DNA of 64,000 nt, taken from NCBI GenBank assembly GCA_965216315.1, contig CBDCFN010000016.1, positions 1,056,001 through 1,120,000 of the forward strand, in the 5' to 3' direction. A program made the translations under genes and the position numbers. This document shows positions 29,801-50,092 of this stretch, piece after piece. Every line of letters starts with the position of its first letter. Position 1 is the first letter of the stretch. The notes under the pieces were generated by a model. The model made no database searches and was not told where the DNA came from. It worked only from the letters and a program-made list of their open reading frames with translations. This stretch comes from a bacterium (GTDB taxonomy: Bacteria; UBA10199; 2-02-FULL-50-16; JAJFLM01).

Positions 29801-30394
29801 AGTTACAATCTTGCGACGGTTGATGGCGGGGGTGTTTCTGCCGAACTTGGCGTTGCACTTAATATGCTCAACAGTACGGTCAGTGGTAACGCCTGTTTCA
29901 AACACGGAGCGGGAATTGATGCCCTAGGCACGAGCCATCTTCACTACGTAACGATTACAGGAAATGTGGCGGATCTAGATGAAGATAACGTTGGTGCCGG
30001 TGGCGGAATGAGTTTCTCGGACAACATGCACATGGAGAATTCACTTCTCGCAATGAATCGAACGTATAGCGGTGATGGTCATGATTGCTCCGGTAAAATT
30101 AAGTCTGATGGTTATAATCTGATTCGTGACTACGATGATACGAATTGCAAGCTGGACCCTGCGGGATACGATCCGGCCTCTAAAGACATCACCGGTCTCA
30201 CCAATGATCCTAAGCTAGGTCTATTGAAAGATAATGGCGGCTCCACTCCGACGCACGCGATTAACGAAGGCAGTGTTGCCATTGATGCGGCTGATCCCAA
30301 TAGTGCTGAAGCAAAGGATCAACGTCAGGCACCGCGCCCTGCCGGGAATCATAATGATATAGGTGCCTTTGAATACAACAGCCAAGCGCCTTAA
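26897..30394 (+). CDS. Tandem beta-helix (GGAI/Pmp-like, choice-of-anchor Q-like) surface protein with an internal sorting signal
   Basis: Two homologous modules, each with GGAI/GGGI repeats and DNGGxTPTHA..GS.AID..DQR..D(V/I)GA(Y/F)E. They are joined by GGSCGC, a TM helix, RFRRHK and a second signal peptide. Confidence 0.85.
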   Translation: MSVVRLELRRYRRPAWAVVVTVITFFLCAPVFAATLQVDMKDPDCGQVNKPYCKIENAINNSAAGDTIEIASGIYIENVMVGHDLTINGEDRDTTIVDGNNVTYGARFAPSTTVTVNNMTFRNGKYSRGAGIYTYAQQLTLNNVALKHNSADVNGGAIQFERGNLTINDSIIERNRASEFGGAIYVHPDATLLTINNSKIRHNNAGVEGGAIFHQGEKVKLDKGTRIQGNKAIQDGGALFVHQEADDLEIHDSSILFNRTEKRGGAMFLHGGNVTIKGSHINHNTALGQGINQNGGGAIYANGSQMNIDNTVISGNRTEGSGGGILLRASGDLVITNSVLSYNYAGFNGGGFDLALQGTTLDARNVTISGNAAKKRGGGLFSNNHVHSKLNNVTITKNIAAAVNDPDGHGGGIYLFSMPNNDKLVFEMSNTIVAGNKSLINSGNDCLTAATKLKSLGHNIVGDLGAQCTLDPAAGDPASTDQTGVPDVMLGVLADNGGPTPTHALLEGSPAIDKGNNDSCESADQRGYDRPFDGDENGVADCDVGAYEFGAEGDGEPDDGGDPGDTPADEGVLPGPDGGAGDGAGEANGAKELLEVQGGGSCGCDIRGVQAAPTWMHAWLALMGAFFAVIIGLRFRRHKVKASLFLVVLSLLVWSQHVEAASTLKVDRSDLNCQAAAEPYCTIQAAIDDATAGDTIEIAAGLYFENLIVPDNKELIIKGKGYSQTILDGRNLGPVIELKTFTDVEIEGVTLRHGKAPFGGGIITVGDDLEVRNSVIAFNSATNVSGGGIYSAANLGRLKLVNSTVHYNAVTGPNGNGGGIYWSGIGGAFLDKTHVVGNYGDGNGAGVHIASGAALTMTEGKIAANRAGDNGGGLFHASTGELSVNKTVIRENHAGLAGAGVYIGNQVTESKILQSQIKGNHVSQSDGGGILHGGGKLTLVDTEVSGNRAAEGAGIRATANLDIERSTMSYNLATVDGGGVSAELGVALNMLNSTVSGNACFKHGAGIDALGTSHLHYVTITGNVADLDEDNVGAGGGMSFSDNMHMENSLLAMNRTYSGDGHDCSGKIKSDGYNLIRDYDDTNCKLDPAGYDPASKDITGLTNDPKLGLLKDNGGSTPTHAINEGSVAIDAADPNSAEAKDQRQAPRPAGNHNDIGAFEYNSQAP

Positions 30395-33324
30395 GGTCGT
30401 CCCAGATTATACACAGGCATGAGTCCGATTTTGCCGATAGTGTCCCGGCGGTAGGGGCGTATCATTTCAGGGTTGCGTGGTTGAGTGTCGTAGGCGGCTC
30501 CAAAAGTCCAAATGAGTTGATCCTTTTCCTGGTCTGTTAATTGATCTAGATCCTTCATGAGTAATTGTTCGATCCGTTTTCTGAACAATCGAAACATGCG
30601 ATCCTGGTGATCCTTGGGAACTTGAAAGAAACGTTCAACATTGCCGACCATGTGATTGATACGGCGGATATCGTGCCCATTTTCATCAACGACGGAGTAG
30701 GGGGAACTGTCCAGCATAGGCTCGGATACAGGAACCGGCTCAGAAGCCTCGCCGATAATGGCGTGAGCCGCTTCACCATGGTCGGGATCTGCATTCCCCC
30801 AGCCCCATTTGCGCAGGTCGACTCCGCGGGTAGGGAGTTTTAATTGGTCAAGCGTGGGTAGGACAGCGCCCGGCATCTCTCGGGTCATAAACTCCAGAGC
30901 GGAGGTCACGTGGATATTGTAGATAGGCAGGTCCGGATCGGGAATCATTCCCACTCGATCGACAAAGCTTCCCCCATTCCTGGTTTCATCCCAGCGCCAC
31001 AGCGGTCCATTGGCATCGTAAGGGACATGGCGCAGCGCGGCTTCTATTCCATGGTTGTTGGCGTAATTGAGTAGGAATCGGTTCCAATCTCCATTCGTAA
31101 TCAGTGGGTGCAGCAAATAGTCTTCGGGTACATGTCGAACATCGTTGTCAGGTATTGCCGCTGAATAAGAACTCTGCCCTGTCCATACCGCTACGGAACC
31201 CGCGGGGATGAGCAGGCTTTTTTTACGTGCCCACTTGGGGATGGTTTTCATCGGATAGGCGGGAACGCGGAAAGTAAAACGACCCGGTCGCGCGGGAAGC
31301 GGCATGGAAACCGGCATATAATCATTGGCTATCAGGGTGAAACGATGGGCACCCCCCCGCTTGAATGAGTTATATCCCTTTGGAATTCCCGCAATGGCCT
31401 GAACCGGATAGTGGAAATTACTCAAATCCCCCCCGATATTTTCAGCATGCGCCAGTATTACCCTTGGCGATGAACTTTTGCTTAAGCGTCCGTCTAATTT
31501 AAATTGGACATCGATATTCTGGGCGACACGCTGATAACGCTCGTCGCTATTGTCTAATTCTCTCAATAGGACCCTGCTCGTCGCTTGGATGAGACGATCA
31601 ATTCCATTTCTGTCAGCATATTCCCAAAGGCGAAAATTGAGCTCGATGATTTTATCTCGGATGGGTGCGAGTTCGTAGCGCCGATAGGCTTCTTCATATT
31701 CACGTAAGGCAGTACTCATCATTTTTTCCCACTGATTTTCGATGCGACGTTGTTCTGCCAGCGCATGTCGACGAGATTCGCGGTAAGTCATAGGGACTTG
31801 ACTATGACGTTGTCGCCGTTTTCCCTGACTGGCGGTATGCTCCAATTCACGTGCCTTATGCGTGACAAAATCCGCTAGCATTTCGGCTGCATCTTGATGG
31901 CGGTCCTCCGGGTCGTGAGAGAGGGCACGCATGATTAATTGATCAAGCCAAACAGGGATCTTTGGATTGAGTTTGCGCGGTCTTTTCGGTGGATCTGTCT
32001 CCATGATGCGGTGGGAGATATAGGACAGGGGAGATTGTCCCGTCGTACGTGGATAGGGTAACTCTCCGGTCAAGAGTTCATAAAGCATGGCCCCGAGTGA
32101 ATAGACATCCTGACGTGGGTCGGGTTTGTAGCCATAGATGGCTTCGTAAGAGGCGTATTCAAGCGTACAGTTAAGGCGAATATCCTCTTTTTTCGGTTCG
32201 ACGTATTCTGAAAGTCGCAGTGCGATACCAAAATCAGCGAGTTTAATCGTTCCATCTTCAAGGACGAGATAATTATCCGGCTTAATGTCGCGATGAACGA
32301 TACCACGGGCATGGCAGGAGGTTGCCACTCTATGAATAAGATCACGCAGGATATTGATCGCTGCTTCCATGCTATGAGCCTTATTGAAAAAATATTGGGT
32401 GAGGGTGCCTTCTTCCGCATATTCCATGGCGAGAAAGGGGGCCCCCGTAGAGGTGTGCCCGGCGCCGTAAATCTGAATGGCACCGGGAGGGTTGTCTTTG
32501 AGCAATCTGACCTCATTCTCAAATCGCGTCATGGCGGCTTGCTGCCGAGAGGCTAAATGAATAATTTTAAGCACGGCGGTTCGTTCCACGTTCCCTATTA
32601 GATGCTGTGTCGCTAAATAGGCATGCCCCTCGCCACCGGATGCTAACCATTTGAGGGTGTGGAAATTAGAAGGGTGCTGTTCGCCTGAATGTTCAGCCAG
32701 GCGCAATAAATAGCCCTTCTCATCGGAGGTGATATCGGCCGAGAAAGGGCCCTCTTTTACTTCTTCAATTCCTTCAACTTCATCTTCACCGCGATCGACG
32801 ATGTAGGTGTCAATGGACTGCTGGATCGCTGCGGCGGGAGCTTCTATGGCCGCCGCCATACCTTGGATGGTTTTTAGGGTCATCTCACGGGTCTGGCGCG
32901 TGTCGATATCATCTTCAACGGCAGGAGTTTCATCAGATTCAATGTGAAATATTTCTCTCGCATGGCGATCAATTTCACTGATGTCATTAGATTTCGGCAG
33001 GGCCAGGGTCGTGATCAGGCTGTCGATGAGCAGCTGACTGCTGAAAAGCTCGCCGGTTTGTTTCATTGATGACTGCTCTAGACCCATAAGCGCTTCGTCT
33101 ATATTGAAAATAAGGAGACGGCGCGCTTCGCGCGGTATAACCTCGAAATTTCGGACCTTCATTCTGAATTCTGTCCCTGTTGCGACAATCTCGCCAAGAT
33201 GCATTTCGGGTTGTTGCTTGCATGTTGTATAGAGAGTCTGGACCATGCCGCGATATTGGGTGAGGGGACCACTGGCCGCGAGGAGCGCAGAGGTTTGAAA
33301 TAATTGGGCCGTATTCATCAACAT
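30391..33324 (-). CDS. Ser/Thr protein kinase with a C-terminal divergent FGE-sulfatase-like domain
   Basis: Kinase motifs HRDIKPDN, DFG and DVYSLG. C-terminus has LPTLDQLKLPTRGVDLRKWGWG, DSSPY and HMVGNV. Confidence 0.82.
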   Translation of the reverse strand: MLMNTAQLFQTSALLAASGPLTQYRGMVQTLYTTCKQQPEMHLGEIVATGTEFRMKVRNFEVIPREARRLLIFNIDEALMGLEQSSMKQTGELFSSQLLIDSLITTLALPKSNDISEIDRHAREIFHIESDETPAVEDDIDTRQTREMTLKTIQGMAAAIEAPAAAIQQSIDTYIVDRGEDEVEGIEEVKEGPFSADITSDEKGYLLRLAEHSGEQHPSNFHTLKWLASGGEGHAYLATQHLIGNVERTAVLKIIHLASRQQAAMTRFENEVRLLKDNPPGAIQIYGAGHTSTGAPFLAMEYAEEGTLTQYFFNKAHSMEAAINILRDLIHRVATSCHARGIVHRDIKPDNYLVLEDGTIKLADFGIALRLSEYVEPKKEDIRLNCTLEYASYEAIYGYKPDPRQDVYSLGAMLYELLTGELPYPRTTGQSPLSYISHRIMETDPPKRPRKLNPKIPVWLDQLIMRALSHDPEDRHQDAAEMLADFVTHKARELEHTASQGKRRQRHSQVPMTYRESRRHALAEQRRIENQWEKMMSTALREYEEAYRRYELAPIRDKIIELNFRLWEYADRNGIDRLIQATSRVLLRELDNSDERYQRVAQNIDVQFKLDGRLSKSSSPRVILAHAENIGGDLSNFHYPVQAIAGIPKGYNSFKRGGAHRFTLIANDYMPVSMPLPARPGRFTFRVPAYPMKTIPKWARKKSLLIPAGSVAVWTGQSSYSAAIPDNDVRHVPEDYLLHPLITNGDWNRFLLNYANNHGIEAALRHVPYDANGPLWRWDETRNGGSFVDRVGMIPDPDLPIYNIHVTSALEFMTREMPGAVLPTLDQLKLPTRGVDLRKWGWGNADPDHGEAAHAIIGEASEPVPVSEPMLDSSPYSVVDENGHDIRRINHMVGNVERFFQVPKDHQDRMFRLFRKRIEQLLMKDLDQLTDQEKDQLIWTFGAAYDTQPRNPEMIRPYRRDTIGKIGLMPVYNLGRP

Positions 33325-33328: not shown

Positions 33329-36292
33329 TTACCGAGTCAAGGTGGATACCATGGGTGTGGGGACGGCACCCTGTTCCGCGGTTCTTAATTTGATAACGGG
33401 GTTAAATCCTACCAAGGCTAAGGCTGAGGTGTCATGGACGGGGATGGGTTGAGCTATCTCCAAGTCTTTAGGCGTGAAACTATTGTAAGGAGCTCCTGCC
33501 GTAAAATACCAGTGATCAAATGGATTGTCTGTTTTGACGTACTCAAGCCCTGAATAATCGAGTAACATGTTAGCGGCAGAGCTGCCATCGACTCGCAATA
33601 GAGTCCTAACCCCGCTCACCATAAAGCGGACGGCTTGTTCCGGTCCCATTTCTCCCATGATTGAAAAGGGCGAAAAGTCGAGCATGGGATAGTTGTCAAA
33701 AAAACCGTCAAAATCGTTGGTCGGGATGCGCGCCGGAACCTTAAAGCCGGGAAATCGCCAGACGGCGATCCCTCTCCGTGTATCATCCCCCCAGGGATAA
33801 ATGCGGCGATCATTGCCGCGCATCGCGCGTTTCCATTCATTGAGGTCCGCCGGAAGGACGGTGTAGCCGTATTTTTTGATAAAATCACTGTAGGCATATC
33901 TTAAATAATGGACGGCATGCGCATAGCCGACGCCGGTTACGGCCGCATTTTCGATGAGTGGTCGATCATTCCTGTCTCTTAAAGTTAATGATTGATTAAA
34001 TTGGCCATTCAATAAGGCCATGTGAACATCTTCGTGCCAATGAGCGGGGATTGCATTGGCGAAGGCTGCCAGTGCTTGTTGCCGATTTTTTCGTTTACGC
34101 CGATTAATGAGGCGTCGTGTTGCAATCAAAAACTTTAGATAATCCTTGTTTGTTACCTTTGGCCCAAGCCAGTAATCGTAAGGAACGATTCGCAAATCTT
34201 TCTTGGGGATCTTTTCACTGAAACGACTCCTGAAATCACGGACGGCAACGGGACCAGCGGGAACGACAATGCCATCGAGTGGTAATGATTCACGATGATA
34301 ACGCGGTATTCGCAGAGTATGTGGTGATGAAGAAGGTCGTGCCGGTACGGGAACCCCAATTGGATGATAAAGCGGGTGATCAACCATGAGGTAATGGGAG
34401 TTGCCACGTGGAACTTTAATGATATTCTGAGGGATGCCGCGCGTTGTCTCCTGATAACCTTGCCACTTCAGTACGCCGTGAACATCCTGAGAGTGGCCGA
34501 TGGAAACTGTATAGTTGCTGTCATTGGGGTCCGCACCATCGAAGTCGAGTTGTATGCTGATGCGCCGGCTAAGCATGGGGAGCTGCATGCTCTTGGGTTC
34601 ATATCTCTCCCATTCCCTAATGAGACTCTGCCGTTCGCCTTCATTGCCGCGCATGTCGGCCCATTTAACCAGGTCGGAGATTCGATTGACGATCTCTTGT
34701 AAAATTGCGCCTTTAGGGTAGAGTTTGTAGGCATCCTTATATTCTTGCAGGGCCCTTTGTTGGTGATGTTTCCACTCCAGTTTGTGTTCAGCCGCAAGCT
34801 CCTTGTCAGGTTCTTTTCTTCGGAGGATCTTAAGGTATTCAGTCTCTGCTTGAGCGGCCGCTTGTTCATGGGCACGTGCTTTGTAGGTGCTCAAATCGAC
34901 GAGCAGGGCCTCAGCATTGGGGTAGCGTGCATCAATGTCTCGGGACATCGCCTTAAGCACAATGCGATCAAGTTCTGCCGGAATTTCTCGATCGGGAGAA
35001 ACTTGGCTGGGTCGAGGGGGGTCAATCTGTGACTTATCGAGATATTGACTGATATGATTCTTGCGGTGATCATAGGGGAGCTGGCCTGTGAGTAATTCAA
35101 AGAGTAGGACGCCGAGGGAATAGACGTCGCGCGTGTAATCATCTGGGTGCTGTTCGAGCCAGGCCTCCATGGGCATGTAGGGTGGTGTCCCTTGAACATT
35201 TTTTGTTTTCTGCTGTGATATCTGTTCAATGGTTTGGGCAATGCCGAAATCTCCAAATTTCAAAGAGCGCGCTTCTTTCGAGCGTACCATGAAGAAATTT
35301 TCCGGCTTAATGTCCTTATGGACAATGCCAATCGTGTGTGCTTCGTCAACGGCAGCGGTCGCTTGCAAGGCAAGTGTAATAATCGTTTCAAGGTCGAATT
35401 CAATTTGACCATCATTTATCTCTTCAATATGCTCCATGAGATTACCGTGCATGCGTTCCATGATGATGAACGGTTCGCCGGCTTCACTTTTTCCCGTGTC
35501 ATGGATAACAACGATGCGACGATTTTCATCTTCCATGCGTCCTTGAAGTCGGGCTTCGTTGCGAAAGTATTCCATATGCTCCGCGGCATTCTCTCCGGTC
35601 TTATTGATGACTTTGATCGCAACGAAACGGTCCATTTTGACGTCATATGCTTCATAGACGAGGCCTCCACCGCCTTCTCCAAGCACGTCGGTAAGCTGGT
35701 ATTGAATTTCATCGCGTCCACTGATGCGAAAGGGGATGGGATCCTCACGGGTTGGAATTTCTTGAGACGTGTCATCCGAGCTGATGACAACTTGCTCAGG
35801 TTCAGTGGCTTCAACTTCCGTACGAGTCTTGCCGAAACGAATTCCTTTGCGGGAGCGCAAATGGCCTATTCCGACTAAGGTACTGTGCCGAAGTTGCTGC
35901 CAGGGAGGGCTCCAGAGTTTTGTTTGGCGAAAGAGCCGGTCTAAGGCTTCCTCGGCGGGCTCATTTTGCCGCGGCAGGAGTTCGTACAGATAAAGATCGT
36001 TGAGGAAGGTGTTGAGCGCAATCTGTGTGGCCGGATTCGTGGTGTAGGCCAATAATAAATTGTCGCGTATCATTTCGGCGTTCTTGATCACGTCCTCAGG
36101 CATGTTCATTTCAATGAGACCATTGGTTAGCTGACTCATCGGGGGGACGAGTTGTTGAACGCCGATCGCGTCGTGTGCGGCGCCGAGCGCATGAACTTGC
36201 GTGACAGCTTCAATATAGAGCTGGCTAGCCGTTGTGCCGCTGGATGCCAAGAGAGATGAAGCACCCAAACTCGTGACCGGTGAGAAGAGCAT
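33329..36292 (-). CDS. Ser/Thr protein kinase with a C-terminal divergent FGE-sulfatase-like domain (paralogue)
   Basis: Kinase motifs LGEGGGG, VAIK, HKDIKPEN, DFG and GTPPYM. C-terminus has EWKRAMRGNDRRIYPWGD and DFSPF. Start at ATG 36292 (alternative 36313). Confidence 0.85.
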   Translation of the reverse strand: MLFSPVTSLGASSLLASSGTTASQLYIEAVTQVHALGAAHDAIGVQQLVPPMSQLTNGLIEMNMPEDVIKNAEMIRDNLLLAYTTNPATQIALNTFLNDLYLYELLPRQNEPAEEALDRLFRQTKLWSPPWQQLRHSTLVGIGHLRSRKGIRFGKTRTEVEATEPEQVVISSDDTSQEIPTREDPIPFRISGRDEIQYQLTDVLGEGGGGLVYEAYDVKMDRFVAIKVINKTGENAAEHMEYFRNEARLQGRMEDENRRIVVIHDTGKSEAGEPFIIMERMHGNLMEHIEEINDGQIEFDLETIITLALQATAAVDEAHTIGIVHKDIKPENFFMVRSKEARSLKFGDFGIAQTIEQISQQKTKNVQGTPPYMPMEAWLEQHPDDYTRDVYSLGVLLFELLTGQLPYDHRKNHISQYLDKSQIDPPRPSQVSPDREIPAELDRIVLKAMSRDIDARYPNAEALLVDLSTYKARAHEQAAAQAETEYLKILRRKEPDKELAAEHKLEWKHHQQRALQEYKDAYKLYPKGAILQEIVNRISDLVKWADMRGNEGERQSLIREWERYEPKSMQLPMLSRRISIQLDFDGADPNDSNYTVSIGHSQDVHGVLKWQGYQETTRGIPQNIIKVPRGNSHYLMVDHPLYHPIGVPVPARPSSSPHTLRIPRYHRESLPLDGIVVPAGPVAVRDFRSRFSEKIPKKDLRIVPYDYWLGPKVTNKDYLKFLIATRRLINRRKRKNRQQALAAFANAIPAHWHEDVHMALLNGQFNQSLTLRDRNDRPLIENAAVTGVGYAHAVHYLRYAYSDFIKKYGYTVLPADLNEWKRAMRGNDRRIYPWGDDTRRGIAVWRFPGFKVPARIPTNDFDGFFDNYPMLDFSPFSIMGEMGPEQAVRFMVSGVRTLLRVDGSSAANMLLDYSGLEYVKTDNPFDHWYFTAGAPYNSFTPKDLEIAQPIPVHDTSALALVGFNPVIKLRTAEQGAVPTPMVSTLTR

Positions 36293-36302
36293 CGCTCCTT
36301 TT

Positions 36303-36328
36303 TCGCCAATCATCTTCGATAGTTGTGT
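36303..36328 (-). promoter_or_regulatory. Alternative-sigma promoter-like motif ACACAAC-N15-GCGA
   Basis: Minus strand reads ACACAAC TATCGAAGATGATTG GCGA AAAAGGAGCG ATG. Confidence 0.55.
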
Positions 36329-36370
36329 AATTTTTCAGATAGGAACGAAGGCCGCTAAGTCCCAATAAAC

Positions 36371-36396
36371 ACGCAACAAATTGGCTCAAGAACCGA
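36371..36396 (+). promoter_or_regulatory. Alternative-sigma promoter-like motif ACGCAAC-N15-CCGA
   Basis: ACGCAAC AAATTGGCTCAAGAA CCGA, upstream of the GGAGG SD and GTG 36435. Confidence 0.62.
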
Positions 36397-36434
36397 AGGT
36401 TCAGCTGGGGCGTAGGCTTTGGAGGGAGATAGGA

Positions 36435-38273
36435 GTGAGCCTGGCAGTATCTCAGCTCGGTTTTTCGTCGAGTTTTGTCGGGATGGGTGCAATCTGCGCA
36501 TCTTTGCCGGCGCGCCCGATTAATCTCGGTCGAGTGCCAGCCCTCGATCACTTCATATCCCAGCCCCCCTCTAACGACCAAATTCGACCTAGTTGGAGCA
36601 GCCAACGTTCTACGGGTTCCCGGCATATTCTGGCCGCCGCACCGACGCGGGGTGGCGTGTCAACCGCGACAACCGTGGGTCCCGGCGGGCTCCGTGGCAG
36701 TGGCGGAGGTGGTCCCATTCAGCCAGGACACGTCTTTAAGCTGCCGAGAGGCGGCATGATTGTTTATACCTCTGCAGGGTGGCTTCAGATTGGTGTGCCC
36801 ATGTGGACCAACAAAGATGCGCGTTGGCTCTACGATCTAGCGGATGGCAGTCAGGCGAGTCCGGAGCAAATTCCTCACATCATGCCCACAATCTATATCT
36901 TTGATCTCGATTATGTGCCTGCAACGGACGGGCTTATTCCTGCTGATTTTCTGCAGTATATGAATTTTGTTACGCGAACCGCGCATAACCCGAAAGGAAT
37001 TACCTTTGAAATGATCGCGCCGGATAATGCGACGGCACGTCGGCTGGAAGACTATCTCAACTTAGTTTTCTTAGGCCCCGATGATCCTGATTTGTCCGAG
37101 CGCGTTCGCCAAGAGTATCCTCCGGGCGCGACCGGAGTGCCTGATTTGCTGGCTGAGATGCATCAGGGATTTCCGGCGGCAGCTCCTGACGTATTGCGCC
37201 GGATACACGCTATGGACGCAAACAATGGTTTCGCCACCGGTCAGGTGACTGTGCGCAAGATTGGTTCTCAACTCTATGAGGTGCAGGATGGGACTGATAT
37301 CACTCAGGTGGATCTGGCGCAGGCTCCGATCCGCGGAGTGAACTTAGCTCAAAGCCTTCCCTCATGGGAATCGCCCGCCCATGAAGATGTCTGGAATGGC
37401 GTGGTGAAACAACAGCGTCCAGGCATTTGGCCGATAGGGACGGGCCATGGGTTTACTGCGGATAAAGAAACCAGCGGATTTATTATTTTTAATGGGGGCC
37501 GTGCCTTATTGGTGGATCCACCCTCAAATACAGATGAATTTCTGGTGACCAACCAAATCCCGCTGGCCATGGTGCATGGTGCACTGCTGACGCACGGTCA
37601 TACGGACCATTATGGCAATGCGATTCCCAAGCTGATTTCAATGTTGCCGAGTCTTAAGCTCTACACGACGCCGACTATCTATGACATGTTGCAGGAGCAG
37701 TATGCGTTATCATTAGGCGCCAACTTTTCAGGCGGGCTGGGTCGCTGGACATTCGATCCGATAGCGCCGCAGGAGTTTAAACAGATTATTGGCATGCATT
37801 TTCGGCCCGAGTATACTTTTCATAGCATTCCGACTTTAGGTTTCGATATTTATCGTCGCCCCGTGCAGGATCGCGGTGAGCGTATCGTCATGTTTACAGG
37901 CGATACAAACGCCGATCATGAGCGCATTTTCGATCACACGCAGACGGCTAAGGATGGAACGCCCCCCCTGATGAGCTATGAGCGCGCTCAAAATATTATC
38001 CGCCACGTCGATGGAGTGCTAATGCCCCCCCGGGGTGCACGACCGCCTGTTGTCCTGATCGATAACGGGATTGAGCCCTTACACACGCCCCCGGCGGCGA
38101 CGCAAAAGCTTCTTGTCGAGGCGATTCAGCGTGGTATCGATGTCTCCCGGATACGGGTCTATCATATTGACAGTAAGGAGGCCCGTCGTCATGGCTTGCC
38201 GGAATGGCTGGAAGGGTGGCGCGGCTTTATCGACCTTTCTCAGTATTTTCAGAGGTTTAGAAGCAGCCCCTGA
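36435..38273 (+). CDS. MBL-fold metallohydrolase, putative cyclic-nucleotide phosphodiesterase
   Basis: THGHTDH (HxHxDH), HSIPT and FTGDT. LPRGG..LQIGVP and GHGF..TSGFIIFNGG..VDPP are motifs I recall from PdeD-like MBL phosphodiesterases. Gly/Ser/Pro-rich N-terminal extension. Confidence 0.75.
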   Translation: MSLAVSQLGFSSSFVGMGAICASLPARPINLGRVPALDHFISQPPSNDQIRPSWSSQRSTGSRHILAAAPTRGGVSTATTVGPGGLRGSGGGGPIQPGHVFKLPRGGMIVYTSAGWLQIGVPMWTNKDARWLYDLADGSQASPEQIPHIMPTIYIFDLDYVPATDGLIPADFLQYMNFVTRTAHNPKGITFEMIAPDNATARRLEDYLNLVFLGPDDPDLSERVRQEYPPGATGVPDLLAEMHQGFPAAAPDVLRRIHAMDANNGFATGQVTVRKIGSQLYEVQDGTDITQVDLAQAPIRGVNLAQSLPSWESPAHEDVWNGVVKQQRPGIWPIGTGHGFTADKETSGFIIFNGGRALLVDPPSNTDEFLVTNQIPLAMVHGALLTHGHTDHYGNAIPKLISMLPSLKLYTTPTIYDMLQEQYALSLGANFSGGLGRWTFDPIAPQEFKQIIGMHFRPEYTFHSIPTLGFDIYRRPVQDRGERIVMFTGDTNADHERIFDHTQTAKDGTPPLMSYERAQNIIRHVDGVLMPPRGARPPVVLIDNGIEPLHTPPAATQKLLVEAIQRGIDVSRIRVYHIDSKEARRHGLPEWLEGWRGFIDLSQYFQRFRSSP

Positions 38274-38290: not shown

Positions 38291-38316
38291 AAACAACAAT
38301 TTTGCCCCCCGGCCGA
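38291..38316 (+). promoter_or_regulatory. Alternative-sigma promoter-like motif AAACAAC-N15-CCGA
   Basis: AAACAAC AATTTTGCCCCCCGG CCGA AGAAG, 18 nt before ATG 38335. Confidence 0.6.
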
Positions 38317-38334
38317 AGAAGCGGGGAAGCTGTG

Positions 38335-41300
38335 ATGTTAGGACTCAACGCACAATATAGCCTCACCCAGGCGGGTGTGATGGCCGCTGTTTCTACGGCG
38401 GGTCTACGCCATATCTATGGGATAGCCGGGACGCTTGAGAATAACCTGCGCCTTAATATCCCGATGGAGAGTATTGCCGAAACGTTGGCCCCGCAAGTGG
38501 CTCAGCTTGAATGGGATCAGAAGGGTAAACAGCCGCAGCTCATACACCAAAATCGCATGCTCGAGCGTATTGTCGCCGGCACAGTCTATCCCGATGCCGA
38601 CGGTAGAAAAACCGACGCGCATGTCGTTTTGGGATCCATTTACCATGCGATTGAGCGGATCAATCCGCAGCTCTATCAGGAACTGTCCGGTTTTGCGGGC
38701 AAACTCACTTTGCCGCCGCCATCGATGTCATCTCGACGGAGGACGACAGGACATTATTCAAGCGCCGCGCCACCGGCTGCGACTGTCGTGCCGAAACATC
38801 GTGAAGGCCAAATTGAATGCCTGCATTGTCAGAGTTGGAATCCCGTTAGTAAGAGTTTCTGCGGTGACTGCGGAGAAGACATTTCGGATGATTCTCAATA
38901 TGTGCCGCGGGCGCAAAACATGCGCGGAACAATCTTGTTTACAGACTTTCAAGGATTTACCGATATGAGTCAGTCAATGCCGGCAGAAGTATTGTTCGGG
39001 TGGCTCAATAGACAGTTCAATCTATTGGGAGCCGAGATCATGCGGCAAGGGGGATGGTTCGTTAAAAACATCGGCGATGCGATCATGGTGGTCTTTAATC
39101 AACACGAAGATCATGCCCGGCGTGGAGTCAGTACAGCGGTTCGCATGTTGCAGATTCTTGAGCAGGTCAACCCGCAGCTCAAGGGCATGGGCCTTCCGGC
39201 CTTGCAAATGAGGATTGGCGTGCACACAGGGAATATTGCAGTTGGCTATCTCGGTGGGCCTGGTTCAAAACGAGCGGATGCGATAGGCCGTGCCGTTAAT
39301 TTGGCTTCACGGCTGGAGAGTTTCAAATTGGAAAAGGGAGCTCGAACCATAAATGTTCCTGACGGAAACCGCGTCCTTGTCTCCGGTGCGACCCTGTCAG
39401 AACTAGCCGGAGGCTTTGAACATAGCTTCATTGATAAAGTAGCTTTCAAGGGAGTTGAGCAGCCGGTTGAAGTTTATCACATTCAAGGTGAGTTGCCGGG
39501 GGCCAGTGTCGCCGACCGCTATGCAGGTTCCCAAAGCCAGTTTCGGGGGCGTCGGCGAGAAATGGATCAATTGCAAGCGACCTTTGTTCAAGCGATGCAG
39601 GGACAGCCTCAGTTGGCACTTATCTCCGGCGAGGCGGGCCAGGGAAAGAGTCGACTCGCGCTTGAATTCTTGAATTCAATGAAGGGGCCGCGGGAACGTC
39701 ATATCAAAGTCATAGCCGCACGTGGGGTTGATAGGGATTATCATCCTCCCTATGCCTTGATGAGCGATGCCCTGACGCACTTGGCCGGTATCGAAGCCGA
39801 TGATGAGTTGGAAGAGATTGAGGTCAAAATTCGGAGTCTGGTTTGGTTGTCAAAAGGTCTTGGAGCTGAAGAGCAAGAACAGATGGCGCAGTTGCTGGGA
39901 CGCTTGATGGGGATTCCCTTTCGAACGGAGTTTTCCCCGCAGGAACGGCTGAAGCGCGAGACGATAGAAATGCGCCAAAGAGTCTTCGATAATATTGAAT
40001 CAATGGCTTCAGACCAAAATGTCTTGCGTATGGCAATTCATCGCGCTGTCATTCAATTCTTTCAAGAACATTCCCGCTATTTTTCCCTAATACTTTCTCT
40101 GGAAGATGTGCATTGGTCCGACCAGGAATCATTGGAGCTGTTGCACGAAGTATTCGCATCGCTTGAAGACCGACCGGTAATGGTTGTGGGGACCATGAGG
40201 CCCGAATTTGATACGGGACCCGGTTTTCAGCTCGAAGATATTTTTGCAGGGGATTATAAGGCCGAGCCGATACAGCTCCGTGAGTTATCGATGACGGACA
40301 TGCGCTCCATTGTACAAGACATACTTGGTGAAAGCTCTCAAACGGATCCGGAAGTGGTTAATTACGTCATCTGGCAAGCGGCCGGTAATGTTTTTTTACT
40401 GCATGAAATGGCCCAGGCGGTTAAGGATGGTTGGTTGCAACGCGGAGAGACACCTGAAGAGTGGCGTTTGGTGGGTGCGCATGATGAGCGTCGCACCGTC
40501 GGTGCCGATAATTTTTTACAGACGCGCCTCGAACGATTATCTCCGGCCGAACGCAGTGTCGTTGACTATGCGGCGGTAATTTCCGATGCCTTTGATTTAC
40601 AGTTAATACAAGAATTGGGGATCCCCAATGCGGGCGTTCATTTAGGGCAACTGGTTCAAAAACAGATCCTTCATCAAGACCGACAAGGTAAGTACCGCTT
40701 TCGCCATGATATGATGCGTGCAAAGGCCTATGCGATGATGAGTCATGAAACGCGCCGTGACCTGCATCGCGACATGGCGGAGTTGCTGGTTGAGCATGAA
40801 GTAGAGGACAAAGCTCTTATAGCGTATCATTTGGATAAGGGAGAACAGACGGTAGCGGCGGCCCGCTATTATTTGGATGGCGCCGAACAAGCGCAAGAAC
40901 GCGCACTCTACCGGCAGGCGCTTAGATATTACGATCGTGTCTTTGCCTTGGGTCGCGAAGAAGATAATCAATTGGCTTTGCGGGGTTTGTTGGGGGGGAA
41001 TGAAGTCGCTCTGGATATGCGCGATACCGAATCGGCCTATGCGCGTATCGAATTGGCAGCAGATCTCTTGCAGTCAGGTATTGAACGTGAAGTCAGATCT
41101 CAGTATTTTTATCGCCTCGCCCATACGTTGCAAGTTGACCGTAATGATGAAATCAAAGCGAATTTGTTCGCTGCTGAGCAGGCCGTAAAAAACGCACTAA
41201 AGCGATACGATGACGTCGAAGTATCACCTATGAAAGCGCAATTGTTGGCGACGTTGGGACGGATTTACGCGGAACGCAGGGACTTTCAGGTGGGGCAAAC

Positions 41301-42804
41301 CTATATTCGTCAGGCGATTGTTACGGCCAAAGCGGCTCATGATGATGATGTGGTTGCGGAAACCTATCTCCACCAGATGTATATGGACCTGCAGTATGGA
41401 GACTATGGGTCGGTTATCAAGTTAGGCAATGATGTCGATGCCTTGCTCAAATCCCCTAAGTTTGCCAAGCGCCGGATTGCCCGAAACGTGAATGTAGGAG
41501 GCGCGCACATCAATCTGGGTAATTACGAGGAGGCGCTGCGCATTTATCAAGTGACGGAGACGCTGTCGCGTGAAAAATTTGCAGGGACCTACCTTCCCAA
41601 TATCGTTCCTAACGTCGGGACCTGTTTGCGTCTCCTGGGTCGATCGGAATTGGCGCTCCAACATCTCGATCGTGCGATTGAACTCTTTAGCCACCAACCC
41701 AACGCCTTTATGGCGGGGGTGACGCAACTCTATCGTGCGCTGACTCTCCTCGACCTTAAGCGCTATGACGAGGCCGACGAGGCGGCGACCCGAGTCTATG
41801 CCGTTTCACAGGCGGGGAATGAGCCCGATCCAAAATTAGAGGCGATGGCGCACATGGCTCATGCCCAGATCCAATTAGCTCAAGATCAACTGCAAGCGGC
41901 CGAACAAAGTAGCGCTGAAGCCTATCGATTGTTGTTGGCATCTGAGTGGCATATTGAGGAGTTTGATTTAGAGATTGCGCTGACACATGCGCGCATCCTG
42001 TGGAAGCAGGGTAAGAGCGAGGAGGCGTGGCAGGTCCTTCATGGAACCGAGCAGGTCAAGGGGGCCAGGCAGGAGCTTGTGCTACGGGCAGAGAAACTCG
42101 ACTTGGCGTTGCAGGCGAATTTCTATCATCGGAATCGGGTCAATGCGGCGATCGTTCAGATGTGGGAAGCTATTCAGTTAGAGAGGTTGCGAAGTAATAG
42201 TAACGCTAGCCTGGGGGCTATCGTGCAGGAAGCGCTTACGCGAGTTCAGCCGGGCATGTTGACGCCTGATATTGAGGCTTATGCGCAGCAGGAGCCAGGG
42301 AAGCTGTCGGCGCTGAGAGAAGTCGGTAATCATCAGCTGGTTGGGGTTCTACTTAACTCACCATATATAGTCACGCTGGGAACAGTACTATCAAGGAAAT
42401 TAGAAGAGATGGGGGCTGCAGAAACGATGGAAGCCGGACTTTCATTGACCCGTGCCGTGTGGCGCCCTTCGTTTAATGAAGATGGCAGGCCCATTGTTTA
42501 TTGGGATTTTGATCTTGATTCCGACAATGTGCAGATCTTAAGTGCTTTAAACACCATTGGAAATGTTAGGCGTCACATTCATGCGACGTATGAAGGAGAT
42601 GTGAGCTACAGTGATGGAGTCATTAAAGTTACCTTCAACTTAACGCAAGAAACGGAGACCTTCACGACGGACCAATTTGGAGCTATCGAGTTACTCATTG
42701 GCGCGACCACCGATGGGCGCTCCGTTTTGGCGCTGCGCGCTGAAAAGGGTGCCTTTACAGCGCGACCGGATATCTTACTCCAGGACTTAGCCGAAGGTCT
42801 CTAA
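38335..42804 (+). CDS. Zn-ribbon / class III adenylate cyclase / P-loop NTPase / TPR protein
   Basis: Zn ribbon CLHC..FCGDCG. Cyclase motifs FTDFQGFT, KNIGDA, RIGVHTG and DAIGRAVNLASRLE. Walker A GEAGQGKS and Walker B LEDVHW. TPR region. Start set to ATG 38335. Confidence 0.9.
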   Translation: MLGLNAQYSLTQAGVMAAVSTAGLRHIYGIAGTLENNLRLNIPMESIAETLAPQVAQLEWDQKGKQPQLIHQNRMLERIVAGTVYPDADGRKTDAHVVLGSIYHAIERINPQLYQELSGFAGKLTLPPPSMSSRRRTTGHYSSAAPPAATVVPKHREGQIECLHCQSWNPVSKSFCGDCGEDISDDSQYVPRAQNMRGTILFTDFQGFTDMSQSMPAEVLFGWLNRQFNLLGAEIMRQGGWFVKNIGDAIMVVFNQHEDHARRGVSTAVRMLQILEQVNPQLKGMGLPALQMRIGVHTGNIAVGYLGGPGSKRADAIGRAVNLASRLESFKLEKGARTINVPDGNRVLVSGATLSELAGGFEHSFIDKVAFKGVEQPVEVYHIQGELPGASVADRYAGSQSQFRGRRREMDQLQATFVQAMQGQPQLALISGEAGQGKSRLALEFLNSMKGPRERHIKVIAARGVDRDYHPPYALMSDALTHLAGIEADDELEEIEVKIRSLVWLSKGLGAEEQEQMAQLLGRLMGIPFRTEFSPQERLKRETIEMRQRVFDNIESMASDQNVLRMAIHRAVIQFFQEHSRYFSLILSLEDVHWSDQESLELLHEVFASLEDRPVMVVGTMRPEFDTGPGFQLEDIFAGDYKAEPIQLRELSMTDMRSIVQDILGESSQTDPEVVNYVIWQAAGNVFLLHEMAQAVKDGWLQRGETPEEWRLVGAHDERRTVGADNFLQTRLERLSPAERSVVDYAAVISDAFDLQLIQELGIPNAGVHLGQLVQKQILHQDRQGKYRFRHDMMRAKAYAMMSHETRRDLHRDMAELLVEHEVEDKALIAYHLDKGEQTVAAARYYLDGAEQAQERALYRQALRYYDRVFALGREEDNQLALRGLLGGNEVALDMRDTESAYARIELAADLLQSGIEREVRSQYFYRLAHTLQVDRNDEIKANLFAAEQAVKNALKRYDDVEVSPMKAQLLATLGRIYAERRDFQVGQTYIRQAIVTAKAAHDDDVVAETYLHQMYMDLQYGDYGSVIKLGNDVDALLKSPKFAKRRIARNVNVGGAHINLGNYEEALRIYQVTETLSREKFAGTYLPNIVPNVGTCLRLLGRSELALQHLDRAIELFSHQPNAFMAGVTQLYRALTLLDLKRYDEADEAATRVYAVSQAGNEPDPKLEAMAHMAHAQIQLAQDQLQAAEQSSAEAYRLLLASEWHIEEFDLEIALTHARILWKQGKSEEAWQVLHGTEQVKGARQELVLRAEKLDLALQANFYHRNRVNAAIVQMWEAIQLERLRSNSNASLGAIVQEALTRVQPGMLTPDIEAYAQQEPGKLSALREVGNHQLVGVLLNSPYIVTLGTVLSRKLEEMGAAETMEAGLSLTRAVWRPSFNEDGRPIVYWDFDLDSDNVQILSALNTIGNVRRHIHATYEGDVSYSDGVIKVTFNLTQETETFTTDQFGAIELLIGATTDGRSVLALRAEKGAFTARPDILLQDLAEGL

Positions 42805-46758: not shown

Positions 46759-46792
46759 CCAAAAGTCACCACGACATTATAAAGAGTCCTTA

Positions 46793-47561: not shown

Positions 47562-47565
47562 TTCT

Positions 47566-47591
47566 ACGCAACTTCTATTATGAGGGCCCGA
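47566..47591 (+). promoter_or_regulatory. Alternative-sigma promoter-like motif ACGCAAC-N15-CCGA
   Basis: ACGCAAC TTCTATTATGAGGGC CCGA TGAGCGTAT ATG, with no SD. Confidence 0.65.
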
Positions 47592-47600
47592 TGAGCGTAT

Positions 47601-49229
47601 ATGGGGTTCGGGTTTGCACTTACATCGACGCATACTCCGACGGCGGCACTAGCTGCCGCGGGTGTAACTTTCAACCGAGCGACTTTCTTTGATGATGTGC
47701 TCCAAACTCAAGGGCTACGCCAAGTCTACCCCATTCGCGACCCTGCAGTTATTACGGAAGCCTTTGCTGCCTATCAAGGGAGTGACGCAGATCTCTTCAG
47801 TTTAGCGGGGACCGAACAAAGTCTCGATGTTGACAGCGGCACTGTTCCACTAACCTATTTGGATAGCACGGCTTCGACCAAGATGATTCCCCACGTGGAG
47901 GCGGCCGAAGCCAATGCCAATCGACATTACGCCAACAGCCATTCGGTTGCTCACAATCCTGCCATGATCTCTACTATCGATTTTAAGAATGCTCATCGCC
48001 GCGCACTTGATTTTGTGGGGGCTAATCCAACCACGCATGTTGCAGTTTTTGATGGCTCTGGTGCAACAGGTCCACTCAATCGAGTGGCAAGAAACCTTTT
48101 TGTCCATGGACGTGATGAAAAAAGGAACACAGTTCTCTTTACGGGCAAAGAGCATCATGCCAACCAGTTACCTTGGCAACGTTATGCCGGTAAGCTGCAT
48201 TGTCATGGTATTCCCGTAGATGGCGTTACAGGTTGTGTTGATATACCTGCCTATCGTCAGTTGCTTCAAGATCATAGTGAACGACTTCGTTTGGTCGCGG
48301 TCAATGGAGTGTCTAATGTGACCGGTGTGGTAGAGCCGGAATTGGAGCTGATGGCTCATTTGGCCCATGAGGTGGGTGCTCTGTTGTTGGTAGATTATGC
48401 TCAGGGCTTGGCTCATAGGGCGATCAGTATGCAAGAGCTGGGTATCGATTTTCTGGTTGCCTCAGGACATAAGACCTATGCACCCGGATCACCCGGCCTT
48501 CTAGTAATGCCACGAGACAGCACACCTCAGTATCCCGACAACGTGGGCGGTGGCATTGTTGAGTCCGTCGATATTGATGATTTTCAACTAAGCAGTAAAT
48601 TGCCCGATCGGGAAGAAGCAGGAACGCCAGATATTATCGGTGGAATTAAGTTTGCGGCGGCATTGGAGGCGCTAGCTTGGGTCGGTATGGATCGAGTTTG
48701 GCAGCACGAGTTGGAATTGACAGAGCAATTGGTGTCAGGATTGATGGCAATATCAGGCGTTGAGGTTTATGGTGATACAGATTTGGCCAGAACACCGCGT
48801 GCCGGTGTAGTAACATTCAATATTGATGGTCTCCATCATGCGATTCTGAGTCAGGCCTTATCGGATTATTTTAATATTGCAACCCGGAATGAGTGCTTTT
48901 GTGCTCAGCCGTATGTGAAATCGCTCTTTCATATGACGCCGGATCAATTGCGACGATTTAAGCACCAGCTTGCAGAGGGTGATCGGAGTAAGGCTCCCGG
49001 GATGGTAAGAGCCAGCTTGGGTATTTACAATACAACCAATGACATCCATCGATTGTTGGTAGCCGTGGCATGGATTAGCGCGAATAAGGATCGTTTGGTT
49101 CAGGAATACTATGTCGATACTAATGGCAATGCCTATCGTCATGACAAATGGCGGGTTGATGCCAATAGGTACAGTTCATTACCCTCTAGCAATGGTGACT
49201 CCCTTTATTTCCCATCGGTCGACAGCTGA
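47601..49229 (+). CDS. Cysteine desulfurase-like class V PLP enzyme (SufS-type) with an N-terminal extension
   Basis: YLDSTAST, EHHAN, SNVTG, VDYAQ, ASGHK (PLP lysine), EAGTP and RNECFCAQP motifs. Confidence 0.88.
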   Translation: MGFGFALTSTHTPTAALAAAGVTFNRATFFDDVLQTQGLRQVYPIRDPAVITEAFAAYQGSDADLFSLAGTEQSLDVDSGTVPLTYLDSTASTKMIPHVEAAEANANRHYANSHSVAHNPAMISTIDFKNAHRRALDFVGANPTTHVAVFDGSGATGPLNRVARNLFVHGRDEKRNTVLFTGKEHHANQLPWQRYAGKLHCHGIPVDGVTGCVDIPAYRQLLQDHSERLRLVAVNGVSNVTGVVEPELELMAHLAHEVGALLLVDYAQGLAHRAISMQELGIDFLVASGHKTYAPGSPGLLVMPRDSTPQYPDNVGGGIVESVDIDDFQLSSKLPDREEAGTPDIIGGIKFAAALEALAWVGMDRVWQHELELTEQLVSGLMAISGVEVYGDTDLARTPRAGVVTFNIDGLHHAILSQALSDYFNIATRNECFCAQPYVKSLFHMTPDQLRRFKHQLAEGDRSKAPGMVRASLGIYNTTNDIHRLLVAVAWISANKDRLVQEYYVDTNGNAYRHDKWRVDANRYSSLPSSNGDSLYFPSVDS

Positions 49230-49246
49230 ATCTGCATAGACCCCAG

Positions 49247-49272
49247 ACGCAACTTTTAGACCTAGCGGCCGA
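49247..49272 (+). promoter_or_regulatory. Alternative-sigma promoter-like motif ACGCAAC-N15-CCGA
   Basis: ACGCAAC TTTTAGACCTAGCGG CCGA AAAG, 13 nt before ATG 49286. Confidence 0.65.
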
Positions 49273-49285
49273 AAAGGGCCTTCTC

Positions 49286-50092
49286 ATGTTGGCCCTATCC
49301 ACTAACGTACTTGCACTGGCTCCAGCGCTTCTCGCCACTACCAATAGTAATGTGCCTCATATCGTCCGTCCTTCGCGCGCTGTCGGCGTCTCGATGTATC
49401 GGAGTCTTGAACGCTTTGCCAATCGACATGAGGGGACGGTCAGAGGGCAGGACGTGTTGAGGCAACTACGTCGTCTACCGAGTCGCTCTGAGTTGGGACT
49501 CGATCATGTGCGACAGTTGCAGGACTTACTCGACTTTCCGTGGTTCTTTGACGCGATTTTACCTAATCCGCTGCTTCTTGATGGCCTGATGCGGGCACTG
49601 GGGCTTAAGGATGATCGTTTTGAGCCGATGGCTGAATTGCTGCTTGCCGGCGGGATCAGGTCCCTGGCGAATCGTGTGAGGGCGCGCAATTTTCGGATAA
49701 AAGACGTTCCTCCCAGTTTTGTGACCTTTCATCCACGGACGGCGGCTCGTAACTGGTTGTGGTGGCAGCCTGAATATGACGTGCTTCTGCTCTGTCATCG
49801 ACCGGGAAGTGTTCAACCGATTCATACTCACGGCGGGGCGGTCGGGGTCGATTACGTGCTTTCGGGGACCATGAGGGAAGAACGCTTCTTGCCTTATCAA
49901 GAAGATACACTTCTGTTTGTGGGATCTCGGATCTACCAGCAGGGCGAGGCATTGGTCGTCAATGATGAAGGCATTCATCGTATCTCCAATGCGTCGGACA
50001 CGGAGAGTCTTTTGACGCTACATTTCTATACGCCGCCGATTCCTGTTTCCAAGGTGGAGACCTGGTATGAAAGTGATGTGGTCAATGCTTGA
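49286..50092 (+). CDS. Cysteine dioxygenase-like cupin with an N-terminal extension
   Basis: PIHTHGG, GIHRISN and TLHFYTPP give the 3-His CDO pattern. Confidence 0.8.
   Translation: MLALSTNVLALAPALLATTNSNVPHIVRPSRAVGVSMYRSLERFANRHEGTVRGQDVLRQLRRLPSRSELGLDHVRQLQDLLDFPWFFDAILPNPLLLDGLMRALGLKDDRFEPMAELLLAGGIRSLANRVRARNFRIKDVPPSFVTFHPRTAARNWLWWQPEYDVLLLCHRPGSVQPIHTHGGAVGVDYVLSGTMREERFLPYQEDTLLFVGSRIYQQGEALVVNDEGIHRISNASDTESLLTLHFYTPPIPVSKVETWYESDVVNA

Follow-up and report, generated by a model that had tools for sequence, protein, structure and literature searches.

A sigma-28-like promoter and an uncharged N-terminal leader in a candidate type III secretion cargo regulon of a UBA10199 bacterium

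In Pseudomonas syringae, HrpL, an alternative sigma factor linked to its type III secretion system (T3SS), acts on a single promoter type, the hrp box, in front of effector genes scattered over the genome (PMC4149516, PMC2957411). In the parts of the published accounts available to us, this promoter together with an N-terminal composition high in Ser and low in Asp defines the effector inventory (PMC4149516, PMC2957411, PMC3877298). Here, we describe a similar arrangement, noticed in a window of 64,000 nucleotides (NCBI GenBank assembly GCA_965216315.1, contig CBDCFN010000016.1, positions 1,056,001 to 1,120,000) from an uncultured bacterium of the GTDB lineage UBA10199. Six genes of the window, encoding two Ser/Thr kinases, a metallo-beta-lactamase (MBL)-fold protein, an adenylate/guanylate cyclase, a cysteine desulfurase-like enzyme and a cysteine dioxygenase (CDO)-like protein, share an upstream motif and an uncharged leader at the protein N-terminus. 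The two marks occur together across the genome, which also encodes a non-flagellar T3SS, and on balance we think that the leader is probably the export signal of the late (cargo) class of that system.

Two further systems are relevant. In Bdellovibrio bacteriovorus the attack-phase consensus of the sigma factor FliA is TTAAG-N16-CCGATA, and 92 of the 140 promoters mapped carry the motif, according to the portion of the study at hand (PMC3627812). Myxococcus xanthus, a predatory 'deltaproteobacterium', possesses a 'needleless' T3SS* consisting of a basal body and sorting platform, with no recognisable secretin, needle or translocon; its effectors are given as unknown in the part of the report to which we had access (PMC12075869).

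A literature search on type III secretion, sigma-28, effectors and leaderless transcripts found no description of a system such as that presented here, and of the papers listed by a full-text search for UBA10199 none has the name in its title or abstract. The cognate promoter of sigma-28 has the -10 element GCCGATAA with the -35 element about 11 bases upstream, as in the E. coli form TAAAGTTT-N11-GCCGATAA. Flagellar class-3 genes and the Campylobacter Feds and Cia proteins depend on sigma-28, and the products are exported through the flagellar T3SS by means of uncleaved N-terminal signals.

Promoter and leader across the genome

The source genome (G000; 2.96 Mb in 16 contigs, 98.3% complete) contains 675 matches to the loose pattern CAAC-N15-[CG]CGA, compared with about 279 expected from base composition. 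An open reading frame (ORF) comes next after 430 of these matches, and the distance from the CGA to the start codon peaks at 9-14 nt, with 105 ORFs in this class. Residues 2-20 are uncharged in 57 of the 105, the other distance classes giving 2/39, 14/64, 22/124 and 7/98. These 57 sites, which combine the 9-14 nt distance with an uncharged N-terminus, served as the training set for a scoring matrix. Their consensus is c(G/A)CAAC(T)TTT-N10-g(C)CGA(T)AAGgg, or in short form cGCAACTTTT-N10-gCCGATAAG. At a threshold of 14 bits the matrix yields 260 sites in the genome and 36 in a simulated Markov-1 counterpart; raising the threshold to 16 bits leaves 195 and 15. The spacing of the two elements is specific, because CAAC-N16-CGATAA has 90 matches, compared with 7-31 at five other spacings and two for the reversed pattern. 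By its -10 element and its architecture the motif looks like a sigma-28-type promoter: the -10 element gCCGATAAG agrees with that type, and at -35 there is CAACTTTT, set apart by 10 bases, compared with TAAAGTTT and N11 in E. coli and TTAAG and N16 in Bdellovibrio.

Two details concern the distribution of the matrix sites. Repetitive DNA at C16:684963-691002, which lies opposite a gene for over 2000 aa, holds 11 sites of 14.4-14.7 bits that are spaced by multiples of 99 bp, at 198 or 297 bp within clusters and at least 1089 bp between them; these are repeat copies rather than promoters, so that the site count is slightly inflated. Contig C15 (488 kb, 16% of the genome) carries about 50 of the 226 ORF-followed sites that reach 14 bits, and several clusters of leader genes are found there, for example at 334-361 kb.

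With a score of at least 14 bits and a distance of 6-100 nt, the promoter stands ahead of 186 genes, which puts the regulon at about 190 promoters. The association with the leader was tested on 2551 crude gene calls, a leader being defined as the absence of Asp, Glu, Lys and Arg from residues 2-20; starts anywhere in the first 40 codons were accepted, a choice that favours the null. Uncharged N-termini are present in 115 of the 186 promoter genes and in 222 of the 2365 others (odds ratio 15.6, p 9e-61). When the genes behind the 57 training sites are left out the figure is 69 of 140 (odds ratio 9.4, p 1e-30). The first-pass annotation of the window, which knew the motif and the leader from six genes, had proposed a genome-wide scan for exactly this enrichment, and the enrichment is strong.

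Composition and content were analysed on a fixed set of 120 leader genes. A profile built from the six window proteins alone retrieved three further genomic N-termini, two of them with the exact motif upstream. The profile of all 120 leaders is too weak for E-values (no match at E 0.01 or better) and is of use for ranking only. It ranks 49 more N-termini, 18 of which, including that of kinase 1 of the window, begin no more than 30 nt after a gene on the same strand; judged by eye, part of the 49 are membrane or Rossmann-type starts. From the set of 120 and the mixed quality of these additions we estimate 120-140 leader proteins.

The leader is an uncharged segment of 20-28 residues, rich in Ser and Thr in its first half and in Leu and Ala in its second half, which often ends in small residues. 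Residues 2-22 of the 120 leaders comprise 16.0% Ser, 16.6% Ala, 17.3% Leu and 9.5% Thr, enrichments of 1.7-2.6-fold over the gene body. There are almost no charged residues, Asp and Glu together making up 0.2%. The set was chosen for lack of charge in residues 2-20; the independent properties are the enrichment in Ser, Thr, Ala and Leu and the length of the uncharged stretch. The first charged residue falls at a median position of 29 (quartiles 26-35), a position that the selection rule required merely to be no lower than 21. For the first basic residue, to which the same limit applied, the median is 38. Hydropathy is moderate, the best 12-residue Kyte-Doolittle window having a median of 1.47.

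In the nucleotide sequence the bias is confined to codon position 2 (C 0.41 versus 0.24 and A 0.10 versus 0.29), position 3 being the same as in the gene body, and the leader is therefore a peptide signal. Its composition is equal in the 66 genes in which the start codon lies no more than 15 nt past the CGA and in 46 genes with a leader RNA of at least 25 nt. Together, these observations exclude an artefact of the RNA level or of leaderless translation, and the leader acts at the peptide level. The promoter sits directly before the start codon of the leader, which goes against the concern raised in the first-pass annotation that the true starts might lie downstream of the leader, and it leaves no room for a start further upstream. 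Since CCGATAA ends 6-10 nt before the ATG, many transcripts should begin at or beside the start codon, and many mRNAs of the regulon are probably leaderless. This would be unusual behind one alternative-sigma promoter in a Gram-negative lineage.

The type III secretion locus and the candidate cargo

The first-pass annotation had noted that no export machine is encoded in the window and had suggested looking for one, together with a sigma factor, in the rest of the genome. Using Pfam and NCBIfam models we find a non-flagellar T3SS locus at C16:339-360 kb, with a FliA/WhiG-like sigma gene inside it. The single FHIPEP gene of the genome is SctV (806 bits against an equivalog cut-off of 692), and its match to FlhA is below the cut-off for that model. 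In addition to SctV and the sigma factor, the locus encodes an SctD-like protein with FHA and PEGA domains, an LcrH/SycD-like chaperone, SctJ, TPR proteins, a FliG_C-like protein, SctL, SctN, SctO, a FliK/HpaP-like (SctP-like) protein, a FliO-like protein, SctR, SctS and SctT. SctQ is represented by FliM- and FliN-like parts, and SctU is encoded away from the locus. The injectisome core set (SctV, SctR/S/T/U, SctN, SctL, SctO, SctQ, SctJ and SctD) is complete in the genome. The same genome gives no Flagellin_N match, and searches of it for markers of type VI secretion (VipB), type IV secretion (VirB4) and phage or contractile sheaths, the other machines that had been considered, found none.

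For the product of the sigma gene (C16:350511-351410) the closest solved structures are chains of WhiG and FliA, with E-values from 4e-24 to 3e-13, and SigF ranks behind them. Among the NCBIfam models TIGR02479, FliA_WhiG, matches best, and the other top matches are to the SigB/F/G and RpoH groups; only the generic sigma-70/ECF superfamily model passes its cut-off. These top matches do not place the factor in the ECF group to which HrpL belongs. The sigma factor of the locus most likely reads the promoter described above.

The sigma gene is followed by a gene for a 162 aa protein, which we assign as an SctI-like inner rod protein: 16 of its 23 orthologues match PF17001, and the copy in the source genome itself does not. 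Its AlphaFold model (mean pLDDT 52.7) is too poor for a fold search. An identity as an anti-sigma factor was dropped because the orthologues match the inner-rod family. Directly after sctT there are five large proteins without Pfam families, the first two of which, of 717 aa (with an HExxH motif) and 491 aa, carry both promoter and leader. The apparatus genes at 339-360 kb have no ORF-followed matrix site of 14 bits or more in front of them. With the apparatus lacking the promoter and the cargo bearing it, the layout resembles the flagellar hierarchy, in which the apparatus comes first and late substrates are under sigma-28.

Some other features of this region may be recorded here. The proteins of 491, 460, 624 and 601 aa (C16:362938-370038) have a conserved C-terminal helical region in common and could be outer or axial parts of the machine. 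A 183 aa protein of the locus gave only a chance match (E 4.7) among sequences of the Protein Data Bank. Two strict matches to sigma-54 promoters, one of them 84 nt before the gene for the 460 aa protein, are uninformative given 139 genome-wide. Beside the locus, C16:372422-376496 encodes an FHA-domain sigma-54 activator and a Ser/Thr kinase with five PEGA domains, and PEGA domains occur also in the SctD-like protein and in a kinase adjoining sctU. The sigma-54 activator and the PEGA kinase may be upstream regulators of the apparatus genes.

We compared the source genome with 40 relatives, giving 41 genomes of 1.5-3.7 Mb from 21 families of one class. The sigma factor is present in all 40 relatives, at 52-81% identity, and SctV in all 41 genomes, above the cut-off in 40. 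Flagellin is found in five of the 41, and these five have an additional FHIPEP gene and another sigma match, weaker than the first. Control of late flagellar genes does not describe this sigma factor in the source genome, in which there is no flagellin. The pattern CAAC-N16-CGATAA occurs 23-101 times per relative, compared with 0-8 times for the reversed pattern and 0-18 times at N20 spacing. Small genomes and a universal T3SS point to an obligate host- or prey-dependent lifestyle of the class.

The leader is distributed differently from the promoter. One procedure gives uncharged N-termini behind the promoter for 23 of 73 ORFs in the source genome and seven of 12 in a member of the same family (G001), against none of 12 in a genome of the same order (G003) and, by eye, about one of 19 in G023. 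The desulfurase illustrates how the marks may arise. Its orthologues in the same-family genomes G001 and G002 have both promoter and leader, the leader being conserved in character and not in sequence; the orthologue in G010 abuts the preceding gene and has neither mark. Homologues of other phyla start 12-17 residues before the GLRTxYP block with charged N-termini and again have neither. The desulfurase thus shows what appears to be a joint gain of promoter and leader, and the first-pass concern that orthologues in unrelated taxa might carry the same leader is answered for this enzyme, as its homologues outside the family do not. No CDO orthologue is present beside the desulfurase orthologues, and none was found in the 40 relatives with this query.

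Among the 120 leader proteins, no Pfam family is assigned to 80 at a threshold of E 1e-5 (54 of 85 and 26 of 35 in two batches). Signalling members include a Ser/Thr kinase, two cyclase-AAA_16-TPR proteins, hybrid histidine kinases, a response regulator, and GGDEF, RelA/SpoT and diacylglycerol (DAG) kinase proteins. There are AMP-binding enzymes, a phosphofructokinase (PFK), a malic enzyme, GDH and RtcB on the metabolic side, and further members with Macro, GNAT, glycosyltransferase, FGE-sulfatase-like, LamG, Exo_endo_phos, HAD and helicase assignments. At least one of the set, a GatA-type amidase, is possibly a false positive. Elsewhere the genome holds a canonical, higher-scoring copy of each of the leader-bearing enzymes PFK, carboxyltransferase, GDH and RtcB, and these paralogues have charged N-termini. 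The leader enzymes require ATP or cofactors and could not work in the periplasm.

The largest leader proteins are a multidomain acetyl-CoA carboxylase of 2588 aa (C16:1632111-1641907), with ACC_central and a biotin ligase domain, and a protein of 3856 aa that combines acyltransferase and MaoC domains (C15:369991-381568). With the leader-bearing acyl-CoA synthetases, acyltransferase and DAG kinase these two giants give the set a lipid-metabolism theme. At C16:445474-456134 at least three tandem LamG paralogues have the promoter, scoring 14.7-21.1 bits, and begin with an uncharged stretch of the leader type that lacks a lipobox cysteine.

T3S signals occupy the first ~30 residues and are high in Ser and low in Asp, as stated in the part of the source available to us (PMC3877298), and the leader, which is Ser-rich, poor in acidic residues and followed by its first charged residue at a median position of 29, fits these features. 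We read the leader proteins as T3SS cargo because the sigma gene lies inside the T3SS locus, leader genes stand in that locus and the composition of the leader is T3S-like; because the gene set is rich in orphans, changes quickly and includes extra-copy enzymes that need a cytosol; and because the searches for VipB, VirB4 and sheath markers turned up no other injection machine. In the model that we favour with moderate confidence, the FliA/WhiG-like sigma factor would read the promoters genome-wide, transcription would start at or beside the ATG, which in over half of the leader genes lies 9-15 nt after the CGA, and the ~120-140 proteins with the leader would be exported as cargo. The hierarchy would mirror that of the flagellum, with the apparatus genes outside the regulon and the cargo inside.

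Several findings weigh against this model. The exported cargo regulon put forward in the first-pass annotation is partly supported, by the enrichment of leaders behind the motif and by the T3SS with its sigma gene, but stays a prediction as regards export. SctC was not found in the source genome, where there are two Secretin matches only: an 852 aa protein that is GspD (521 bits, against 132 for SctC) and a borderline 253 aa protein among housekeeping genes. Needle and translocon families were not recognised there either. The SctI-like and SctP-like proteins, which are early substrates, have charged N-termini and no leader, and the leader is therefore not a general signal of this T3SS. To our knowledge T3S signals are normally not so stereotyped. 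T3SS, sigma factor and promoter are class-wide, whereas the stereotyped leader was seen in the same family only. The sigma factor scores 133 bits (E 1.3e-38) with FliA_WhiG, below the cut-off of 189.6, and only its location and its family tie it to the promoter. Several of the cargoes are signalling proteins of bacterial type, such as hybrid histidine kinases, a response regulator and GGDEF proteins, or are very large, at 2588 and 3856 aa. Finally, the promoter is also found outside the leader genes: of the 186 promoter genes 71 have no leader, and ordinary Sec and lipoprotein genes with a charged n-region are among them, in some cases at 8-14 nt from the promoter.

The last of these points bears on the main rival proposal, which we consider unlikely, namely that the promoter drives a life-stage programme, like the FliA attack phase of Bdellovibrio, and that the leader is an intracellular degradation or localisation tag on stage-specific cytoplasmic proteins. 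A regulon that extends to Sec and lipoprotein genes and to regulators is wider than one cargo class, and PFK, GDH, RtcB, carboxyltransferase, histidine kinases, GGDEF and RelA/SpoT proteins, all of bacterial type and many with canonical paralogues, would suit stage-specific isoforms. The Bdellovibrio motif counts cited above (PMC3627812, available to us in part) supply a precedent, and the early T3SS substrates lack the leader. Nevertheless, two thirds of the leader proteins (80/120) are orphans, the sigma gene is within the T3SS locus with leader genes right after sctT, and the composition of the leader matches published T3S signal features as far as the source was accessible. We know of no degradation or localisation signal of this form, no literature search having been aimed at one.

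We hold it to be less likely still that the leader serves another export route, be it an odd Sec-type signal without a basic n-region that feeds a type II system, the loading of vesicles or an unrecognised machine restricted to the family. The family-restricted leader alongside a class-wide T3SS, the presence of the GspD secretin where SctC was not found, and the Leu/Ala-rich second half that often ends in small residues would all agree with such a route. However, the leaders depart from Sec and lipoprotein signals: they have no strongly hydrophobic h-region, as their moderate hydropathy indicates, and no basic n-region, the latter by the selection rule. Passengers that depend on ATP, PLP, NAD or biotin would be useless in the periplasm, the true Sec and lipoprotein genes of the regulon retain ordinary charged n-regions, and no marker of type VI or type IV secretion or of a sheath was found in the genome.

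A functionless leader, a by-product of the 5' end needs of leaderless mRNAs or of wrong start codons, would suit the short distance from CGA to start in 66 of the 120 leader genes but is very improbable, being contradicted by the bias at codon position 2 only, by the equal peptide composition in the 46 genes with 25-100 nt of leader RNA, by regulon members that start 8-14 nt behind the promoter and encode ordinary charged Sec signals, by the orthologues in G001 and G002 that keep the character and not the sequence of the leader, and by a promoter that leaves no space for an upstream start.

Returning to the T3SS cargo model, we can offer only tentatively its fuller form, in which the leader would be a stereotyped address label, evolved in a family of uncultured bacteria with small genomes, for a flagellum-like, secretin-less T3SS that, with a dedicated FliA paralogue and leaderless transcripts, sends well over 100 proteins, bacterial-type signalling enzymes and two of megasynthase size among them, into prey or host, or else a label that serves a targeting route as yet unrecognised.

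The window genes

The six genes and their promoters are listed in Table 1. Pfam bears out the six enzyme families named in the first-pass annotation: two Pkinase proteins, Lactamase_B, Guanylate_cyc with AAA_16 and TPR, Aminotran_5 and CDO_I.

Table 1. Leader genes of the window and the promoters in front of them (positions in the window)
Feature	Position	Strand	Evidence and remarks
Ser/Thr kinase 1, 977 aa	30391-33324	-	Pkinase residues 222-480; leader 33250-33324
Ser/Thr kinase 2, 987 aa from ATG 36292	33329-36292	-	Pkinase; leader 36218-36292; longest ORF 33329-36313
Kinase-operon promoter, sigma-28-like	36303-36325	-	Pattern match; matrix 23.3 bits; CGA to kinase 2 start 10 nt
MBL-fold gene promoter, sigma-28-like	36374-36396	+	Pattern match; matrix 15.2 bits
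Metallo-beta-lactamase-fold protein, 612 aa from GTG 36435	36435-38273	+	Lactamase_B; leader 36435-36509; longest ORF 36381-38273
Cyclase gene promoter, sigma-28-like	38294-38316	+	Pattern match; matrix 22.7 bits
Adenylate/guanylate cyclase + AAA_16 + TPR protein, ~1490 aa	38335-42804	+	Pfam; leader 38335-38409; longest ORF 38302-42804
Class-V aminotransferase gene promoter, sigma-28-like	47569-47591	+	Matrix 21.7 bits; CGA to ATG 9 nt
Cysteine desulfurase-like class-V aminotransferase, 542 aa	47601-49229	+	Aminotran_5; leader 47601-47675
Cysteine dioxygenase-like gene promoter, sigma-28-like	49250-49272	+	Matrix 30.0 bits; CGA to ATG 13 nt
Cysteine dioxygenase type I-like protein, 268 aa	49286-50092	+	CDO_I residues 146-254; leader 49286-49360

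Five of the six genes have CAAC-N15-[CG]CGA upstream, as had been stated for five transcription units. The sixth, that of kinase 1, has no such motif of its own; its ATG is 4 nt past the stop codon of kinase 2, which makes it an operon member that requires no separate promoter, and its N-terminus is matched by the leader profile. For kinase 2, the MBL-fold protein and the cyclase, the start codon of the longest ORF falls inside or before the motif, and the starts given in Table 1 (ATG 36292, GTG 36435 and ATG 38335) are likely to be the true ones. The start codon of the MBL-fold gene lies 38 nt 3' of its promoter, with a GGAG-type ribosome site ahead of it. With the corrected starts the N-termini of the six proteins can be aligned from residue 1 without a gap; the first half is rich in Ser/Thr, and a stretch rich in Leu/Ala follows around residues 12-19. 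The shared leader reported for all six proteins is thereby upheld. That the leader occupies an extension ahead of the catalytic domain is true of the desulfurase for the first ~25 residues, which are added; the rest of its 85-residue extension is mostly conserved family sequence.

The CDO promoter has the top score of the 226 ORF-followed sites genome-wide. The cyclase-AAA_16-TPR protein has a paralogue on contig C15 that likewise carries promoter and leader. Neither mark is found on the intervening genes, which encode a lipoprotein-like 459 aa protein, NfeD, SPFH, a Sec-type 174 aa protein, GBBH-like_N and a thioesterase; the absence of both marks from housekeeping, Sec and lipoprotein genes holds for these neighbours but not genome-wide, where the promoter also drives Sec and lipoprotein genes.

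The promoters of the kinase operon and the MBL-fold gene are divergent, with 48 bp between their CAAC ends, and form a compact pair of the same type at 36303-36396. Next to the kinases, 26897-30394 encodes a beta-helix surface protein of 1165 aa that has a Sec-type start, gives Chlam_PMP and Pectinesterase-like matches and bears neither promoter nor leader.

Comparison with known systems

In Bdellovibrio, as here, a sigma-28-type promoter with the same -10 element runs a large non-flagellar programme, and the organism is a 'deltaproteobacterial' one with a small genome, according to the accessible part of that work (PMC3627812). Bdellovibrio is flagellated and uses its flagellar FliA, whereas our source genome has no flagellin and its sigma gene lies in a non-flagellar T3SS locus; the flagellated relatives in the class have a separate, second FliA-like gene. 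Here the -35 element reads CAAC, and the spacer has one base less than in Bdellovibrio. A common protein leader is not mentioned in the part of the attack-phase account available to us (PMC3627812).

The likeness to the T3SS* of M. xanthus concerns the machine. Like the T3SS*, which has no recognisable secretin on the evidence of the portion of the M. xanthus report at hand, the locus here has no SctC, and it has FliG-, FliM- and FliO-like parts. The word 'sigma' does not occur in the main text of the M. xanthus report (PMC12075869). The present locus differs in having an SctI-like rod gene and the four paralogous large proteins with the common helical region, and an outer part may therefore exist in this machine.

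With respect to P. syringae, HrpL is an ECF factor and the sigma factor here is FliA/WhiG-like. The regulon of about 190 promoters is several-fold larger, the leader has a more stereotyped form, many of the transcripts appear to be leaderless and no secretin of the T3SS was found.

As with the flagellar class-3 genes and the Campylobacter proteins, a factor of the sigma-28 family is encoded with the export apparatus and would turn on the late substrates. The differences are that there is no flagellum, that the substrates would be enzymes and orphans, and that no FlgM-like anti-sigma factor was identified, an SctI-like gene following the sigma gene instead. Promoter and leader together nominate ~120-140 effector candidates in a single genome, where effectors of the myxobacterial-type T3SS are otherwise unknown in the literature accessible to us. 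If the fuller form of the cargo model is true, they would constitute the first substrate code and the first substrate list for a T3SS of this type. The sigma factor would be a sigma-28 paralogue kept with a non-flagellar T3SS throughout the class (41/41), and the flagellar logic would then have been preserved after loss of the flagellum.

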